From IMG/VR virus record IMGVR_UViG_2690316176_000008: a stretch of 24,033 nucleotides of DNA. One strand, 5' to 3'. The position numbers were made by a program, and so were the translations under genes. Shown here in pieces: positions 15,915 through 22,304 of the stretch (positions are counted from its first letter, which is position 1; each line of letters begins with the position of its first letter). The notes beneath the pieces are model-generated. The model made no database searches. It saw only the letters and a program-made list of their open reading frames with translations, and was not told the origin of the DNA. The stretch is from a virus (Duplodnaviria > Heunggongvirae > Uroviricota > Caudoviricetes).

Positions 15915-15991
15915 TGGACCGCCTTCGGGGACCCGAACTCTGCGCAACCAGCTTCGAAAGCTGGCGCTCTTTCCTGATGAGCTAATGGCGG
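15915..15991 (-). tRNA. argN: tRNA-like element, possible tRNA-Arg (UCG) with degenerate T arm and acceptor stem
   Basis: Acceptor CCGCCAT/AAGGCGG (one A-A mismatch), D arm GCTC-ATCAGGAAA-GAGC, anticodon arm CCAGC-TTTCGAA-GCTGG, encoded CCA. The T stem pairs at only 3 of 5 positions (CAGAG vs CCCCG around loop TTCGGGT). Sits between the two good tRNAs at 7 and 13 nt spacing. Confidence 0.45.
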
Positions 15992-15998
15992 TATGTGA

Positions 15999-16074
15999 TG
16001 GTGGCCCTTGCTGGATTTGAACCAGCGACCTGGCGATTATGAGTCGCTCGCTCTCACCACTGAGCTAAAAGGCC
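15999..16074 (-). tRNA. ileZ: tRNA with CAU anticodon (Ile2-type or Met)
   Basis: Acceptor GGCCTTT/AAGGGCC (one G-T wobble), D arm GCTC-AGTGGTGA-GAGC, anticodon loop CTCATAA, T arm GCTGG-TTCAAAT-CCAGC, encoded CCA. Order CAU-tRNA, middle element, UCU-tRNA matches the ileZ-argN-argO trio found downstream of Q in Stx phages. Confidence 0.8.
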
Positions 16075-16100
16075 GGGCCGAAAATAATAATCAGATGAAA

Positions 16101-16814
16101 TCAAAAATCAAGCCCTTGCCTGGATACATATCTGTCTGGCGGGAAGCCATAATAGCGGTGAAATACAGAGATAAAGTAGGCTCTACTTGAATAACCGCAT
16201 TTTGCTGCTACAGCCTGTCCATATCCATGCCGGGAACATAACATATTTACAGCAACCCGCATCCGTTCCTCAAGTAACAAATTACTGAACCTGAGACCTT
16301 CATCCTTGAGTTTTTTCTTTAACAAGCTCTCACTCATATGCAACTGTAGAGCAATCGCACCAAGCGTCCAGCTTGCTGATATATCTGTTTGAATTATCGC
16401 TCTGACTTTGGCACTTATACTGGATACACATCCACTTAAAAATAATGACATCCGTTCATCTGATTCAAACAGCGACAGGCAGGCCATCATAAGAAACATA
16501 TCCGTGGTCTCTCCGGAAAGTCTCTGACTGGTAATTAAAGCCACAGTCAACGCAGGATTGTTGGGTTCCAGCAACAAGTAAAGCGGAATGTCAGTCAGAG
16601 GACCTCTCGTCAGCTTATGCTGGCTTTCCAGATATTGACTTACTATAGAATGGCTTATATCGACAATTTTAACTTTGCCATAATGCATAAGGAAAAGCTC
16701 CCTGATGCATTTGGTGGCCAGAACGACTGAGCCGGGCTTAAGTGACAATGTATCCTTTTCAAGAAAAATATTAATTGGGGAACAAACCATGATAACTGAA
16801 CAGATAGCAGTCAT
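16101..16814 (-). CDS. AraC/XylS-family transcriptional regulator
   Basis: 237 aa. The C-terminal ~100 residues carry the two-HTH AraC signature (WTLGAIALQLHMSESLLKKKLKDEGLRFSNLLLEERMRVAVNML...GYSSRAYFISVFHRYYGFPPDRY). AT-rich gene. Confidence 0.85.
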   Translation of the reverse strand: MTAICSVIMVCSPINIFLEKDTLSLKPGSVVLATKCIRELFLMHYGKVKIVDISHSIVSQYLESQHKLTRGPLTDIPLYLLLEPNNPALTVALITSQRLSGETTDMFLMMACLSLFESDERMSLFLSGCVSSISAKVRAIIQTDISASWTLGAIALQLHMSESLLKKKLKDEGLRFSNLLLEERMRVAVNMLCSRHGYGQAVAAKCGYSSRAYFISVFHRYYGFPPDRYVSRQGLDF

Positions 16815-16939
16815 TATAATTTTACTTTAATTAGCAATCGGTTAGCTTAATTATAGCCCCAAAAAGTAAATTCTCATCAACACATAAGCAAATGACTGAC
16901 AGGTGCCGCTAACACCCACCAGCCGCCCATTTACCACAA

Positions 16940-16963
16940 ATAAAAAACCTTCAGGACTGAAGG
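16940..16963 (-). terminator. hairpin plus T-run at the 3' end of the small HTH gene
   Basis: Stem ccttca / tgaagg with a 4-nt loop, followed on the minus strand by TTTTTT. Overlaps the stop codon at 16951. Confidence 0.45.
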
Positions 16964-17148
16964 ACTCTGTAACAACCAAACTGATAGTCTGCCAGACCCG
17001 CCATAACCAGCTGGGTCAGTATTAACTGGCAGCGTTCGCGTGAAAGGTACATATTCTGCGCAATCTCCCCGACTGTCGCCGGTTCGGTGACGCTTAACTC
17101 ATTAAACACCACTCTGGCGGTTTCGGTCATATCCTGCTGTTTTAGCAT
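16951..17148 (-). CDS. hypothetical 65 aa protein with HTH-like segment
   Basis: Track ORF 16951..17307 has a junk-like N-terminus. The likely start is the internal ATG at 17148 (MLKQQDMTETARVVFNELSVTEPATVGEIAQNMYLSRERCQLILTQLVMAGL...), with a PATVGEIAQNMYLSRERCQLIL helix-turn-helix-like pattern. Confidence 0.45.
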   Translation of the reverse strand: MLKQQDMTETARVVFNELSVTEPATVGEIAQNMYLSRERCQLILTQLVMAGLADYQFGCYRVLQS

Positions 17149-17329
17149 GTCTTTTTCCCTTTTCTGGTTAACGTAACATACCAATAACTCTTGTCGAAAA
17201 AGCCAGCAAGTTGAAAGACCGGTATTCGCAACCACCAGCGCGTTTAATGTTCTGTACCGCTTTTCGGGCACAATAAATATCCTCCGGCATAGCCGGAGGT
17301 TTTTCAAATGCGCCTATAAGGCTCTCTTA

Positions 17330-18035
17330 CCAGCCGCGCCCTAACAGGCGCACACGATCTGACATTTGCATCCAACTTCGTTACTTACGGCCCGTAAACG
17401 GGCTGCCCGGATAGGGAATCGATAACTGCTCTCCCATTTTATCCTCTTCAAGCTGGTGCTTTATGTAATCCTGTATCTTCGCCGTGTTCTTACCCACCGT
17501 ATCGACGTAATACCCTCTGCACCAGAACTCCCTGTTCCTGTACTTGAATTTCAAATCACCAAACTGCTCGTAAAGCATCAGACTGCTTTTCCCTTTCAGA
17601 TATCCCATAAAGCCGGATACGCTCATTTTGGGCGGGATCTCCACAAGCATATGGATATGATCTGCACAGCATTCAGCTTCCAGAATCCGTACACTTTTCC
17701 ACTCACACAGCTTTCTCAAAATACAGCCTATTGCTCTACGCTTCTCTCTGTAGAACACCTGTCTTCGGTATTTTGGCGCAAATACTATGTGATATTTACA
17801 GTTCCATCGGGTGTGCGCTAAGCTCTTTTCGTTCCCCATTGGGACCCCCTTTTGATTTCTTGTTTGACACTTGCAGTTGCCAGACCGCAAGGTGTTTTAA
17901 CAAATCAAAAGGGGTTTTAATAACTGGCTCAAAGCTGAAAGCTTTCCGGAACCCCCAGCCTAGCTGGGGGTTTTCTGTGCACAAAAAAACCCGCTCATCG
18001 GCGGGTTTAAGCTGTGCGGCGTAGTAACCACTCTT
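17330..18035 (-). mobile_element. IS200-like insertion sequence (IS200/IS605 family); ends approximate
   Basis: Contains a Y1 (HUH) transposase gene flanked by the expected structured left end: hairpin aaacccgc...gcgggttt plus T-run near 17985..18010 and palindrome cccccagc-cta-gctggggg at 17953..17970. A subterminal hairpin gcgcc-ctaaca-ggcgc lies near 17335..17350. Size about 0.7 kb. Exact termini not determinable by eye. Confidence 0.75.
17381..17839 (-). CDS. tnpA: IS200 transposase TnpA (Y1 HUH tyrosine transposase)
   Basis: From the internal Met: MGNEKSLAHTRWNCKYHIVFAPKYRRQVFY...ECCADHIHMLVEIPPKMSVSGFMGYLKGKSSLMLYEQF...YYVDTVGKN, near-identical to remembered IS200 TnpA. HxH (HIH) motif and catalytic Tyr region present. 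Confidence 0.9.
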   Translation of the reverse strand: MGNEKSLAHTRWNCKYHIVFAPKYRRQVFYREKRRAIGCILRKLCEWKSVRILEAECCADHIHMLVEIPPKMSVSGFMGYLKGKSSLMLYEQFGDLKFKYRNREFWCRGYYVDTVGKNTAKIQDYIKHQLEEDKMGEQLSIPYPGSPFTGRK

Positions 18036-18083: not shown

Positions 18084-18644
18084 TTAAAGCCGCATCAACC
18101 GCTCCACCAGTTGCTCTTTACGGGCAACGATCCACCCGTGTTGCTCCAGATAAAATTTAAACCGTTCCAGAGTGCATACCATCGCATCGGCGGGCACCTT
18201 TTCCGTGAACTCAACCTGACCATGTTTATCGAAGTGGATCAGTAATGCGCATCCATCATTTTCGATAGATGTGTTTTGTGCCGCTGGTGGTTGTTTTTGG
18301 TTGAAATAACAGTCTTCCAGTTTTTCGAATACTTCCCACGCCTGATCGGTTTCGAGCATTTTGGCGTGACGGGCTGCTCCGCGTTCTGTCCAGAGTATGA
18401 GCTTTCGGACATTTGGGGCGATCGTTTGAAAATCCCTTAAAGAGATTTTCAAATTTTGGAGGTCTGCGCCTTTCGCAATTATGTAGTGCTTCCCTTCTGC
18501 AAATCGCTCTTTATTACGGTGGTGATTTCTATGAATACACTCGACGCTACAGCCATATAGTTTGGCCAGTAACTCTGTAGTGACAACTGGGAGCTGGTTG
18601 TGTGTGATCGGGGAAAGAGTTTCGACAGAAACTTGAGTCGTCAT
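18084..18644 (-). CDS. ORF6N-domain / antirepressor-like protein, first gene downstream of pR'-tR'
   Basis: 186 aa. The N-terminal ~100 residues (NQLPVVTTELLAKLYGCSVECIHRNHHRNKERFAEGKHYIIAKGADL...) resemble the ORF6N DNA-binding domain of phage antirepressor-like proteins. Family call from memory. Confidence 0.6.
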   Translation of the reverse strand: MTTQVSVETLSPITHNQLPVVTTELLAKLYGCSVECIHRNHHRNKERFAEGKHYIIAKGADLQNLKISLRDFQTIAPNVRKLILWTERGAARHAKMLETDQAWEVFEKLEDCYFNQKQPPAAQNTSIENDGCALLIHFDKHGQVEFTEKVPADAMVCTLERFKFYLEQHGWIVARKEQLVERLMRL

Positions 18645-18804
18645 GATAACGCCCTCTGGTTGATGGATTTAACTATCACCACCGTCAGGTTCCAATCATT
18701 GGGTGGTGAGACGTACAGGGTTGGAACTACCGGATCAACCAACCGGCGAGCCTTTCAGCTCCCCCATACGCCCCACCATTATTCAGATGTGCGTGTGCTT
18801 ACGA

Positions 18805-18830
18805 CAATAAAAAACACGCTCGCGGCGTGT
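18805..18830 (-). terminator. tR'-like rho-independent terminator downstream of the late promoter
   Basis: Stem acacgc / gcgtgt with a 5-nt loop, followed on the minus strand by TTTTTTATTG, about 60 nt downstream of the predicted pR' start. Confidence 0.6.
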
Positions 18831-18892
18831 GTCTGTCGCGGTTGAATATCCGGGGTTCCAATCCCGACGCCAGATTTTGCTGACGCGCGAGG

Positions 18893-18922
18893 AATATAGC
18901 CCCGGACAATGTATATGGTCAA
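18893..18922 (-). promoter_or_regulatory. late promoter pR' (sigma-70, -35 TTGACC, 18-bp spacer, -10 TATATT) immediately after Q
   Basis: On the minus strand TTGACC (18917..18922) and TATATT (18893..18898) are separated by 18 bp, a few nucleotides after the Q stop codon, the canonical position of pR' and the Q-binding element. Confidence 0.55.
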
Positions 18923-18926
18923 GCAC

Positions 18927-19313
18927 CTACATAATTCGTTCTACATATCTGTCCATCTCCAGCCGGATATCAAGCATCATCAACATGCCATCGATAACCC
19001 CTTCCGCCTTCTGCAGGCGCTTACCAACACAGGTATCCGAACATCCAAGTTTCCGTGCCAGACTCATAAAAGTCATTCCATATACGTAATAATCCACCAG
19101 CAAATCGTGCAAATCCTGATTTTTCTTGTTTAACCGGGCCATACAGCCACAAATTATCATTGCATCATCATCAGAACACTGAGGACGTGATTTCACTTTC
19201 GACGGAATTAACCCTTTAAAACCAGCAGCGATCGACGCCCAGGATACATCTTCATGAGTGTTTGCAGCCCAAGCCCCCCACCGTTCCATAACCTGCTGAA
19301 TATCACGCGCCAT
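18927..19313 (-). CDS. quuD: late antiterminator Q (QuuD / phage 82-type)
   Basis: [61 protein letters not shown]...[26 protein letters not shown]...[24 protein letters not shown] is near-collinear with DLP12 QuuD as I recall it. The track ORF begins three codons earlier at 19322. Confidence 0.85.
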
Positions 19314-19674
19314 CGTTATCACCTGTGATTTCGTAAATCTTCACGCCCAGTCGCCCACCAGGAACGAGCTGACCGCGCACAATATTGATTTCATCAAACT
19401 GCTCGTCGTCTATGAGAAGTTCGGCATGCGTCAGCGCATCCAGTGGTGCTTTCAGGATATTGTCCAGGTCACGACGGCGCTTATCCGGTGGCTCTGCAAT
19501 CACCTTTATCGCCAGCCTTCCGGACAGGCTTAATTTCAGCCGCTGCTGGCGAACAATAAGCGCCACAGCCCGGCGATAACGCTTTCCCTCCTCCGAGATA
19601 AAATATGTGCTGCCACGGCGTCGCCAGTAAGTGTTCACCGTCGGCGGGTAAGGTAAAACCAAATCTATGAGCAT
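19303..19674 (-). CDS. rusA: Holliday junction resolvase RusA
   Basis: 123 aa with [20 protein letters not shown] and [11 protein letters not shown], matching the RusA catalytic core (DRRRRDLDN in K-12 RusA). Lies immediately upstream of Q as in DLP12. Confidence 0.88.
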
Positions 19675-21777: not shown

Positions 21778-22065
21778 TCAGAGAATGCGTTTGACCGCCT
21801 CGCTATATACTTCCGAGCGTTCTCTTTTCCCAACAGAAATCACGAAAACGACAACTTTCTCGTCTATAACCTGGTATACAAGGCGATAGCCTGAAGACCG
21901 GAGCTTAATCTTGTAACAATCAGGCATACCACGGAGCTTGTTTGCTTCAATCCGGGGTGACTCAAGTACTTCAACCAGCTTCTTTTTCAACTGTTCACGT
22001 ACCGTCGAGCCCAGCTTTCGCCATTCCTTTAGTGCCCGCTCGTCAAAATCCAGAAAATACGCCAT
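21778..22065 (-). CDS. relE: RelE mRNA interferase toxin
   Basis: 95 aa MAYFLDFDERALKEWRKLGSTVREQLKKKLVEVLESPRIEANKLRGMPDCYKIKLRSSGYRLVYQVIDEKVVVFVISVGKRERSEVYSEAVKRIL, essentially the K-12 RelE sequence. Confidence 0.95.
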   Translation of the reverse strand: MAYFLDFDERALKEWRKLGSTVREQLKKKLVEVLESPRIEANKLRGMPDCYKIKLRSSGYRLVYQVIDEKVVVFVISVGKRERSEVYSEAVKRIL

Positions 22066-22304
22066 CAGAGTTCATCCAGCGTCACACGTACTGGCTTAGG
22101 ATTACGAAGCCGTTCTTTCACTATCTCCACAAGTTCAGCATCTTCATCACTCAGGAGTGTCTGTTTGAACGGCAAGCGTTCATTGTCAGCGATATACTCG
22201 AGCATGAGACGAAGCGCTTCAGAAGGAGTTACACCCATTTTTTCAAGCGCGGCGTAAGAACGCGCTTTAAGTTCATCGTCAATACGCAGGTTAATGCTAC
22301 CCAT
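22065..22304 (-). CDS. relB: RelB antitoxin
   Basis: 79 aa MGSINLRIDDELKARSYAALEKMGVTPSEALRLMLEYIADNERLPFKQTLLSDEDAELVEIVKERLRNPKPVRVTLDEL. Its stop overlaps the relE start. Confidence 0.93.
   Translation of the reverse strand: MGSINLRIDDELKARSYAALEKMGVTPSEALRLMLEYIADNERLPFKQTLLSDEDAELVEIVKERLRNPKPVRVTLDEL

Follow-up and report, generated by a model that had tools for sequence, protein, structure and literature searches.

The window, the whole 24,033-nucleotide stretch analyzed here, carries part of a degraded lambdoid prophage. On its minus strand, between a candidate tR' terminator and the tRNA cluster ileZ-argN-argO, lie a gene for an AraC/XylS-family regulator (hereafter the psr-like gene) and a separate small gene (Table 1). 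An earlier note on the same DNA had placed both there, on the late-gene strand, and the ORF list, ARAGORN, and a terminator scan bear this out. The two genes share their strand with the Q antiterminator gene, the three tRNAs, the nanS-p esterase gene, and the lysis genes. A type III effector gene of the NleB/SseK family lies in the same prophage, as that note had also claimed.

Table 1. Features of the late region and the effector end of the prophage.
Feature	Position	Strand	Description	Basis
NleB/SseK-family type III effector gene	1..981	-	tail-fibre end of prophage	Pfam SseK_NleB 5.1e-171
Terminator-like hairpin after tRNA cluster	15810..15793	-		terminator scan
tRNA cluster ileZ(CAT)-argN(TCG)-argO(TCT)	15825..16074	-		ARAGORN, Rfam, Sakai homologous-tRNA annotation
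psr cassette	about 16080..16879 (~800 bp)	-	stretch differing from methyltransferase-type loci	
psr-like gene	16101..16814	-	237-aa AraC/XylS-family regulator, ATG start	ORF list, Pfam
Candidate psr promoter	16850..16877	-	ATGAGA-16 nt-TATAAT, 10/12 consensus matches, within cassette	
Two conserved hairpins after small gene	16963..16948 (stem, then T-run); 16924..16894	-		terminator-like scan
Small gene	16951..17148	-	65 aa, phrog_331, homologue of SfV orf47	ORF list, profile searches
IS200C	17268..17978 (711 bp); tnpA 17381..17839	-	late-transcription orientation	Y1_Tnp 2.3e-37, RefSeq annotation
Intrinsic-terminator-like hairpin with T-run	17987..18008	-	between ORF6N gene and small gene	
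ORF6N-domain antirepressor-like gene	18084..18644	-		Pfam ORF6N 2.8e-16; phrog_2379 anti-repressor 9.9e-84
C4-like antisense RNA	18699..18783	-	with a1/b1 target-like element 18847..18899	
IsrK-like short RNA	18809..18886	-	full length	Rfam RF01394, 75.6 bits
Candidate late promoter pR'	18893..18922	-	TTGACC-18 nt-TATATT, starts 5 nt after Q stop codon	
Q antiterminator gene	18927..19322 (RefSeq start 19313)	-		Phage_antitermQ 2.8e-52

The product of the psr-like gene is identical to the RefSeq protein WP_000125029.1. It matches HTH_AraC (2.8e-11, 43.7 bits against a gathering cut-off of 26.6) and HTH_18 (3.3e-10, 40.6 bits against 33.6) at residues 155-230, so that its C-terminal ~100 residues carry the two helix-turn-helix motifs that define AraC/XylS regulators, the class proposed earlier. 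The nearest solved structures by sequence are GadX and Rns, with the GadX DNA-binding domain (3mkl) matching at 5.7e-20.

The protein aligns without gaps over all 237 residues with PsrA of Sakai (ECs_1087; 88.2% identity) and with the EDL933 copy from OI-57, which is PsrB by position (90.3%); identity to the PatE homologue, taken to be Sakai ECs_0287, is 37%. The reference genomes are EDL933 (NZ_CP008957.1) and Sakai (NC_002695.2). ECs_1087, found in Sakai prophage Sp4, is named psrA in PMC13502914, and the EDL933 copy at 1,905,274 falls inside OI-57 (1,849,324-1,929,825; PMC8565820). Compared with each other, the two O157 proteins show 91% identity, in agreement with the published PsrA-PsrB identity of 90% (PMC10877973). 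Reviews place psrA in OI-50 (CP-933N), where no AraC gene is annotated between Q and the TerB-like gene in Sakai Sp6 or in CP-933N of resequenced EDL933.

Genes of the Psr group, named for prophage-encoded secretion regulators, are recognized by high identity with PsrA and PsrB over the whole protein, by a position in the late region of a lambdoid prophage adjoining ileZ-argN-argO, and by a type III effector on the same prophage, and each of these features is found here. Association with a PerC/Pch gene has been reported for the family without being strictly defining, and it is not seen in this case: no such gene is annotated in two near-identical prophages (which carry TccP2 in place of NleB), and none is obvious in the ORF list of the window between the lysis and head genes. 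Judged by sequence, it is an intact member of the Psr regulators already described from prophages of pathogenic E. coli, and the view that it is a prophage regulator of that kind is correct.

The alignments also place the gene in a third Psr allele group beside PsrA and PsrB. Its distance from either is about equal to the distance between the two, and it is shared with SCU-125 (99%) and the Stx2k prophages (95%). Set against PsrA and PsrB, the window allele has 23-28 residue differences. Residue 167, in the first helix-turn-helix region, is lysine here, threonine in PsrB, and isoleucine in PsrA, and residues 169-178, between the two motifs, differ as well; target specificity of this allele could therefore differ.

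Chromosomal relatives are far more distant. Full-length alignments give 34% identity to GadW of K-12, 30% to YdeO, and 29% to AppY, and GadX reaches 42% over the C-terminal half only. The protein matches the NCBIfam equivalog model of YdeO over its full length at 100.7 bits, below the cut-off of 348, and scores 89.9 bits against 500 for GadX. Orthology to a K-12 chromosomal regulator is rejected at 29-42% identity and scores so far under the equivalog cut-offs. Because the nearest K-12 relatives are this dissimilar, the gene is not a recently captured housekeeping gene, an origin that the earlier note had named as evidence against its reading.

The regulator occupies a discrete cassette. Homology with the SfV, Stx2a, and RM10466 loci stops upstream of psr at ~16880, about 65-70 nt short of the ATG, and restarts a few nucleotides before the first tRNA; in the SfV, mEp460, phiNP, and Stx2a phages, the same slot is occupied by a DNA methyltransferase gene. 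G+C content is 42% in the psr-like gene and 38% just upstream, compared with about 50% in the flanks, and lies between 42 and 44% in psr genes of this group, PsrA, and PsrB. The gene is thus AT-rich, as claimed, to a moderate degree. Within the cassette lies a candidate promoter, whose -10 block, GGGGCTATAATT, is invariant across five psr loci that vary by 5-10% elsewhere, although the consensus scan returned 7 sites where 5.4 are expected by chance. This element may serve as psr's own promoter. The gene has a single terminator-like site of its own, a weak hairpin located at its stop codon. Of the features of a moron, discrete junctions and lower G+C are present, and the candidate promoter is a conserved consensus match. 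The analysis yields a precise cassette, at about 16080..16879, and a candidate promoter.

The gene occurs in some 810 of the 5,426 complete genomes of E. coli, at least 776 of them at a coverage of 80% or more, and the reading frame is intact in every relative inspected, so that this is not a gene that has become a pseudogene in most relatives. Among the three allele groups, dN/dS is 0.2-0.4, which indicates purifying selection. The gene order Q, variable gene, small gene, psr, ileZ-argN-argO, nanS-p is common to all psr loci examined (Sakai Sp4, EDL933 OI-57, S88, SCU-125, and the Stx2k prophages). The link from prophage state to virulence drawn in the earlier note is not supported by the present analysis. 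Psr-type genes also turn up in S88, an NMEC strain, and in an isolate taken from a healthy person, which fits control of acid resistance as the general role, with control of type III secretion as its consequence in LEE-positive hosts.

The small gene has a different standing. Its product matches the phrog_331 profile over residues 1-64 (1.2e-35), and 328 homologues at E<=0.001 occur in Escherichia, Shigella, Salmonella, Klebsiella, Citrobacter, and Buttiauxella; dN/dS is 0.06-0.38. RefSeq lists the protein as WP_000917753.1. A Pfam scan places it in no family above the gathering cut-off (TrmB, 18.3 bits, 0.0021, against 25.6; MarR_2, 14.3 against 27), and PHROGs gives phrog_331 no function. 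The predicted fold has three helices, and its nearest solved folds are winged-helix DNA-binding domains; as Foldseek E-values for the 65-residue model all exceed 0.1, the model supports a general winged-helix class and no specific family. The HTH-like gene described earlier is thus real and conserved. SfV orf47, which is 92% identical, likewise follows Q and a terminator, and about 135-150 bp separate it from the gene behind it.

This gene precedes the DNA methyltransferase gene in phages that have no psr, and beside psrA in Sakai it has a 1-bp frameshift. On the methyltransferase-type loci and the frameshift, a psr-specific partnership is rejected, against the pairing implied by the earlier note. 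By these comparisons, the small gene is a conserved late-leader gene of lambdoid phages, present with or without psr and neither cargo nor a required partner. The cargo label consequently holds for the regulator and not for its neighbor, which should not be counted as virulence cargo. The suggestion that both genes have promoters of their own fares similarly: psr has its candidate element, whereas the consensus scan finds no promoter-like site on the late strand from the terminator at 17987 to the small gene. The two hairpins in 16894..16963 are common to psr-type and methyltransferase-type loci.

Upstream, the IsrK-like RNA begins about 7 nt after the -10 of the candidate pR' and ends at a terminator at 18830..18814; it may represent the pR'-to-tR' leader transcript. 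Published work derives IsrK from a phage promoter that is under antitermination control (PMC7547250, PMC4825925). C4-like RNA elements score 71.8 bits (RF01695) and 49.3 bits (RF03163), both over the gathering scores, and the ORF6N gene fills the variable slot between Q and the small gene. This arrangement of Q, a terminated IsrK-like RNA, C4-like elements, and an antirepressor-like gene resembles the antQ-isrK-orf45-anrP locus of Gifsy-1 and the C4/ant immunity module of P1. Its elements fix where the candidate pR' and tR' lie and put further barriers in the way from the promoter to psr. The end of the hairpin that follows the ORF6N gene aligns with the terminator annotated upstream of SfV orf47. 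The IS200C element, whose site is empty in SCU-125, includes an Rfam STnc490 match at 17849..17972. The earlier note had located the regulator just downstream of the late promoter, a description that does not hold: the distance is about 2 kb, compared with about 1.1 kb in IS-free relatives, because the antirepressor module and IS200C intervene, along with several terminator-like hairpins.

Compared with close relatives, the prophage also lacks the tail genes and those for the portal and the large terminase, and beyond about 21720 the early region has been replaced. With this degree of degradation, Q expression may never occur in the host. The window is not identical to NZ_CP148579.1, and the annotation of that record does not carry over to it as a whole.

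We consider it likely that the psr-like gene is a functional member of the Psr group, carried between Q and the lysis genes of this degraded lambdoid prophage as a self-contained moron cassette, and that it acts on host acid resistance as PsrA and PsrB do. PsrA and PsrB activate gadE, yhiF, and hdeA and thereby repress type III secretion from the LEE (PMC10877973). By homology, AT-rich sites at the promoters of gadE and hdeA are the most likely targets of the protein encoded here, which would activate gadE and yhiF and so raise glutamate-dependent acid resistance; where the host is LEE-positive, repression of type III secretion by GadE and YhiF would follow. This assumes that the host has the GAD island and the LEE; the presence of nleB in turn implies a type III system. 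In the lysogen, its own promoter-like element probably drives transcription of psr, since several terminator-like hairpins and IS200C separate the gene from the candidate pR'. A second route would open if Q were produced: transcripts that start at pR' and resist termination would extend through psr and on through the tRNAs, nanS-p, and the lysis genes. In this reading, the small gene bounds the cassette slot on the left and is dispensable for Psr function. The sequence evidence establishes what the gene is, its family, where it lies, the cassette boundaries, and its conservation under purifying selection, whereas its DNA targets, regulatory effect, promoter use, and dependence on Q are inferred.

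Missing structural genes, an insertion sequence upstream, AT-rich composition, and a dN/dS more relaxed than that of typical core genes would all suit a gene that, though intact, is in effect a silent passenger; the upstream hairpins, IS200C, and probably H-NS would keep it off, and it would have no role in the host. We regard this as unlikely: every locus examined has an uninterrupted reading frame, the -10 block is invariant, and purifying selection extends over the three allele groups. PsrA, moreover, resides in the similarly degraded Sp4 and yet has a published deletion phenotype and regulated expression (PMC10877973, PMC13502914). Alternatively, psr could mainly serve the phage; its targets in late development might, for example, be the neighboring tRNAs, nanS-p, lysis genes, or superinfection functions, and not host genes for acid resistance. 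Its place in the late operon immediately upstream of the tRNAs, its weak terminator-like hairpin, and the phage DNA methyltransferase that holds the same slot elsewhere are compatible with such a function. It is nevertheless distinctly improbable, since functional phages almost never carry psr (one of 50,697 records in a phage collection has a close homologue), host promoters are the targets of all its relatives, PsrA, PsrB, PatE, GadW, YdeO, and AppY, and its composition and promoter-like element fit a lysogenic-conversion moron.

Two further readings involve the small gene. That it forms a two-gene regulatory unit with psr, either controlling psr or acting together with its product, would fit the adjacency and common orientation of the two in all psr loci examined, the conserved two-hairpin spacer, and the predicted DNA-binding fold. 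The same gene and spacer, however, precede a methyltransferase in psr-less phages, the frameshifted copy stands beside psrA in Sakai, and homology to non-psr loci stops before the psr promoter-like element, which together make such a unit highly unlikely. A looser version is that the small gene and its spacer (16894..17148) are a control module for whichever cassette lies downstream, methyltransferase or psr, in which a controller-like protein made only from Q-dependent late transcripts tunes the cassette. We give this little credence; if true, it would couple Psr output to the induction state of the prophage and not only to host signals.

As a third allele, the gene shows the family to be wider than the two studied O157 genes, and its allele group occurs directly upstream of stx2k in Stx2k prophages as well as in the isolate from a healthy person. 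Regulators of this type give a prophage access to the conserved circuit of acid resistance; in attaching-and-effacing E. coli, they also let it time type III secretion.

Among known systems, the closest counterparts are PsrA (Sakai ECs_1087 in Sp4, z1789 in reviews) and PsrB (EDL933 z2104 in OI-57). Protein length, locus order, AT-rich composition, and the upstream promoter-like block are all as in the window, and their prophages likewise carry type III effectors. The present locus differs from theirs in having the ORF6N module and IS200C between Q and the small gene. Both Sp4 and OI-57 contain a PerC/Pch gene, unlike the near-identical prophages of the window. PatE (z0321, OI-8), a prophage-borne AraC-like protein of the same subfamily, likewise starts with 'CSVI' at the N terminus, carries a double helix-turn-helix at its C terminus, and is a reported activator of gadE and hdeAB (PMC10877973); its homologue lies at the far end of the remnant prophage Sp1, whereas psr occupies the Q-to-tRNA slot. 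GadW, YdeO, AppY, and GadX of K-12, AraC regulators of the acid-fitness network of which AppY is itself located in prophage DLP12, have the subfamily and domain layout in common with the psr-like protein.

The AraC/XylS-type regulator gene psr represents a third allele group within the Psr family and is neither psrA nor psrB itself. Its product, identical to RefSeq WP_000125029.1, matches HTH_AraC and HTH_18 over residues 155-230, both above the Pfam gathering scores. Alignment to the YdeO NCBIfam model spans the whole protein, with a score far short of the equivalog threshold; the GadX NCBIfam model is also matched, and among solved structures Rns and the GadX DNA-binding domain come closest in sequence. 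Over the full 237-codon ORF, the protein is 88% identical to Sakai ECs_1087 (PsrA); it is 90% identical to the product of the EDL933 gene at 1,905,274-1,905,987 and 37% identical to ECs_0287 of Sakai prophage Sp1, which we treat as the PatE homologue. The EDL933 gene is taken as PsrB because it lies inside the published OI-57 interval (1,849,324-1,929,825; PMC8565820), and its product shares 91% identity with ECs_1087, in agreement with the published figure (~90%). The comparison with PatE, PsrA/B and GadX proposed in an earlier note on this DNA thus identifies a Psr-type protein. Identity to the K-12 relatives is 34% for GadW, 30% for YdeO, 29% for AppY and, in the C-terminal half only, 42% for GadX, values that argue against a captured housekeeping regulator. 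The protein shares its N-terminal "CSVI" start with PatE, GadW, YdeO and AppY, in support of translation from the ATG at 16814 rather than from the M43 of older annotations (195-aa forms). The nearest alleles are found in SCU-125, which was isolated from a healthy student (99% identity), and in Stx2k-converting prophages (95%); pairwise dN/dS between alleles is 0.2-0.4.

Earlier publications cover the Psr family, including its carriage on prophages and its association with effector loci; the window allele itself is uncharacterised. Three AraC-like regulators have been described in O157:H7 prophages: PatE (z0321, OI-8), PsrA (z1789) and PsrB (z2104, OI-57), the last with ~90% identity to PsrA. 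By increasing GadE and YhiF, PsrA and PsrB indirectly repress type III secretion, and PsrB and PatE activate hdeA, gadE and acid resistance (PMC10877973; PMC8565820). Two reviews assign psrA (z1789) to OI-50/CP-933N, yet in the resequenced EDL933 (CP-933N) and Sakai (Sp6) records no gene of that prophage is annotated as AraC-type. We found psrA in Sakai Sp4 as ECs_1087, the Sp4 gene to which a 2026 paper from the family's describing laboratory gives the name psrA (PMC13502914). A possible cause of the mismatch is that prophages were mis-assembled when EDL933 was first sequenced.

Alignment of five psr loci with three psr-less loci (SfV, an Stx2a phage and RM10466; alignment A2) shows homology in all of them from ~130 nt upstream of the small winged-helix ORF, through that ORF and two hairpins, to ~16880, where the two types diverge completely. 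In a second alignment (A3), homology restarts a few nucleotides ahead of the first tRNA. psr is therefore an ~800-bp cassette, roughly 16080..16879, with 42% G+C against ~50% in the flanks. The same slot in psr-less phages holds a DNA methyltransferase gene of ~1.05 kb. A promoter-like element with 10 of 12 consensus matches lies within the first 30 nt of the cassette, and its -10 block does not vary among the five psr loci. Being conserved and placed at the cassette start, it is a reasonable candidate for an autonomous psr promoter by consensus match, in a region where the scan returned 7 sites against 5.4 expected by chance. The earlier note considered it plausible that both ORFs had promoters of their own in the lysogen; psr has such a candidate, but the same scan found no promoter-like site upstream of the small ORF. 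A terminator scan found only a weak hairpin at the psr stop codon, and the next convincing terminator-like site (15810..15793) lies behind the third tRNA.

ORF calls, Pfam and ARAGORN bear out the coordinates and gene types first assigned (table), but the small ORF is not the cargo that it had been proposed to be. It has 328 homologues at E<=0.001; those aligned at full length (63-74 aa) come from Escherichia, Shigella, Salmonella, Klebsiella, Citrobacter and Buttiauxella, and its family is phrog_331. Changes fall mostly at third codon positions (dN/dS 0.06-0.38). An AlphaFold model contains three helices (mean pLDDT 70.6), and the closest solved folds found by Foldseek are winged-helix DNA-binding domains such as Lrp/AsnC, PefI, LexA and DeoR, with probabilities >0.9 and E-values of ~0.1, the latter because the protein is so short. 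The gene occurs in functional phages, including SfV (orf47), phiP27, mEp460, the cdtI phage, Citrobacter phiNP and many Stx2 phages. In all four contexts examined (SfV, mEp460, phiNP and one Stx2a phage), it follows Q and precedes a DNA methyltransferase. Beside psrA in Sakai Sp4 (locus L014, 28343..28582), a 1-bp deletion at codon 49/50 (alignment A4) yields a 79-aa product annotated as ECs_1086. That psr and the small ORF form a two-gene regulatory unit, as their adjacency might suggest, is accordingly very improbable: wide conservation, the pre-methyltransferase setting and the Sp4 frameshift identify a conserved phage gene flanking the cassette slot, neither cargo nor a required Psr partner. 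PefI, a 71-aa stand-alone winged-helix regulator, is among its best structural matches, a resemblance only. PefI is a member of the PapI family, whose proteins act together with Dam methylation. The methyltransferase usually found behind the small ORF is annotated as an adenine methylase (dam) in phiNP.

Features of the window that bear on psr and its surroundings
Feature	Position	Strand	Details
SseK/NleB-family effector ORF	1..981	(-)	complete, 326 aa, 5.1e-171; tail-fibre end
tRNA-Arg(TCT)	15825..15901	(-)	ARAGORN
tRNA-Arg(TCG)	15915..15991	(-)	ARAGORN
tRNA(CAT)	15999..16074	(-)	ARAGORN
psr ORF	16101..16814	(-)	237 aa, ATG start
Candidate psr promoter	16877..16850	(-)	ATGAGA-16-TATAAT
Small winged-helix ORF	16951..17148	(-)	65 aa, ATG start
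IS200C	17268..17978	late orientation	711 bp; directly behind T-run of second terminator
Second terminator	18008..17987	(-)	end aligns with terminator annotated upstream of SfV orf47
ORF6N antirepressor-like gene	18084..18644	(-)	ORF6N domain; phrog_2379
C4-like RNA	18699..18783	(-)	Rfam; a1/b1-like targets at 18847..18899
IsrK-like RNA	18886..18809	(-)	Rfam, full length, 75.6 bits
Candidate pR'	18922..18893	(-)	TTGACC-18-TATATT; 5 nt past Q stop codon
ParE/RelE-type toxin ORF and adjacent 79-aa ORF	21778..22304	(-)	Pfam ParE_toxin 2.2e-13

The element is degraded. Against its closest complete relatives, which are 99.3-99.8% identical over 86% of the window, two stretches are missing. One (~8.8 kb; junction near 6340) begins where J starts and reaches the head-tail joining gene upstream of FI. 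The other (~4.1 kb; junction near 9751) takes in the portal and large terminase genes, a head-tail joining gene, the 3' end of the S49 peptidase gene and part of the small terminase gene. The prophage cannot make virions. Beyond ~21720 it diverges from these relatives; the 79-aa ORF beside the toxin gene looks like an antitoxin, and the end (23920..24033) matches an IS1203/IS629 terminus. The presence of an NleB effector in the same element is confirmed; at its position, tccP2 and an espV fragment are found in the two closest prophages. Such decay would suit a psr that is a silent passenger, but relatives are not mostly pseudogenes: psr is intact in all seven loci examined in detail, carries normal protein-coding annotation in 40 of 40 sampled records and has the low dN/dS noted between alleles, and we consider this reading unlikely. 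Matches occur in 810 of 5,426 complete E. coli genomes (776 at >=80% coverage), nearly all chromosomal, with best-match identity of >=95% in 67 genomes and 90-95% in 659; the cluster of the EDL933 OI-57 protein has 2,285 members.

psr might instead serve the phage. It lies downstream of Q on the same strand (Phage_antitermQ 2.8e-52), followed by a tRNA trio annotated in Sakai as ileZ-argN-argO and by a nanS-p-type SASA esterase gene. In Stx2k-converting prophages (STEC309, L013 3804..4517; phage OQ243220.1), it is directly upstream of ileZ-argN-argO and stx2k, where the examined Stx2a phage has the methyltransferase. Set beside the acid-resistance targets of PsrB and PatE, this alternative seems quite improbable. 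A full-length Rfam match to the STnc100 sRNA (138 bits) at 15558..15748 (-), between the tRNA cluster and nanS-p, occupies the interval where Stx phages have stx genes. Two prophages, L009 (3958..4683) and L010 (3587..4312), carry a more distant AraC-like gene (57% amino-acid identity) in another slot, between nanS-p and a tolA-like gene that follows the tRNAs. As both retain the methyltransferase, the Q-to-lysis interval has acquired AraC-like cassettes on at least two occasions.

We favour psr as a regulator of the host. What the analysis shows directly is the family to which psr belongs, where it lies, how its cassette is built, and that it is conserved and under selection. Its product would, if it behaves like PsrA, PsrB and PatE, activate gadE, yhiF and hdeA, leading to more acid resistance and, in a LEE-positive host, less type III secretion. 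Since NMEC strain S88 and SCU-125 carry Psr-type genes as well, acid-resistance control is more likely to be the general benefit, which would make secretion control a side effect in attaching-and-effacing strains. In the lysogen, expression would depend on the cassette's own promoter-like element, because three terminator-like hairpins and IS200C lie between the candidate pR' and psr. If Q is made, polymerase modified by it would pass these terminators, and late transcription would then include psr. The cassette boundaries, the methyltransferase swap, the small ORF as a conserved flank and the Psr allele directly upstream of stx2k may be unpublished points, none of them surprising to specialists.

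The late leader upstream of the small ORF also has known counterparts. The IsrK-like RNA starts ~7 nt past the -10 of the candidate pR' and ends at a hairpin with a T-run (18830..18814). In Gifsy-1, a promoter under antitermination control lies downstream of a Q-like gene and yields IsrK as a short, terminated transcript (PMC4825925; PMC7547250), and from position and homology to that arrangement we infer that the promoter-like site and the hairpin are pR' and tR'. SCU-125 has an empty IS200C site, and the IS200C end ATTGTGC resembles the target TTTGTGC. The slot of the ORF6N module is variable, with a WYL-domain gene in S88, a CAAX-protease-like gene in Sakai Sp4 and nothing in EDL933 OI-57. 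As a whole, the module between Q and the small ORF, comprising the promoter-like site, the IsrK-like and C4-like RNAs and the ORF6N gene, resembles Gifsy-1 isrK-anrP and P1 C4/ant.
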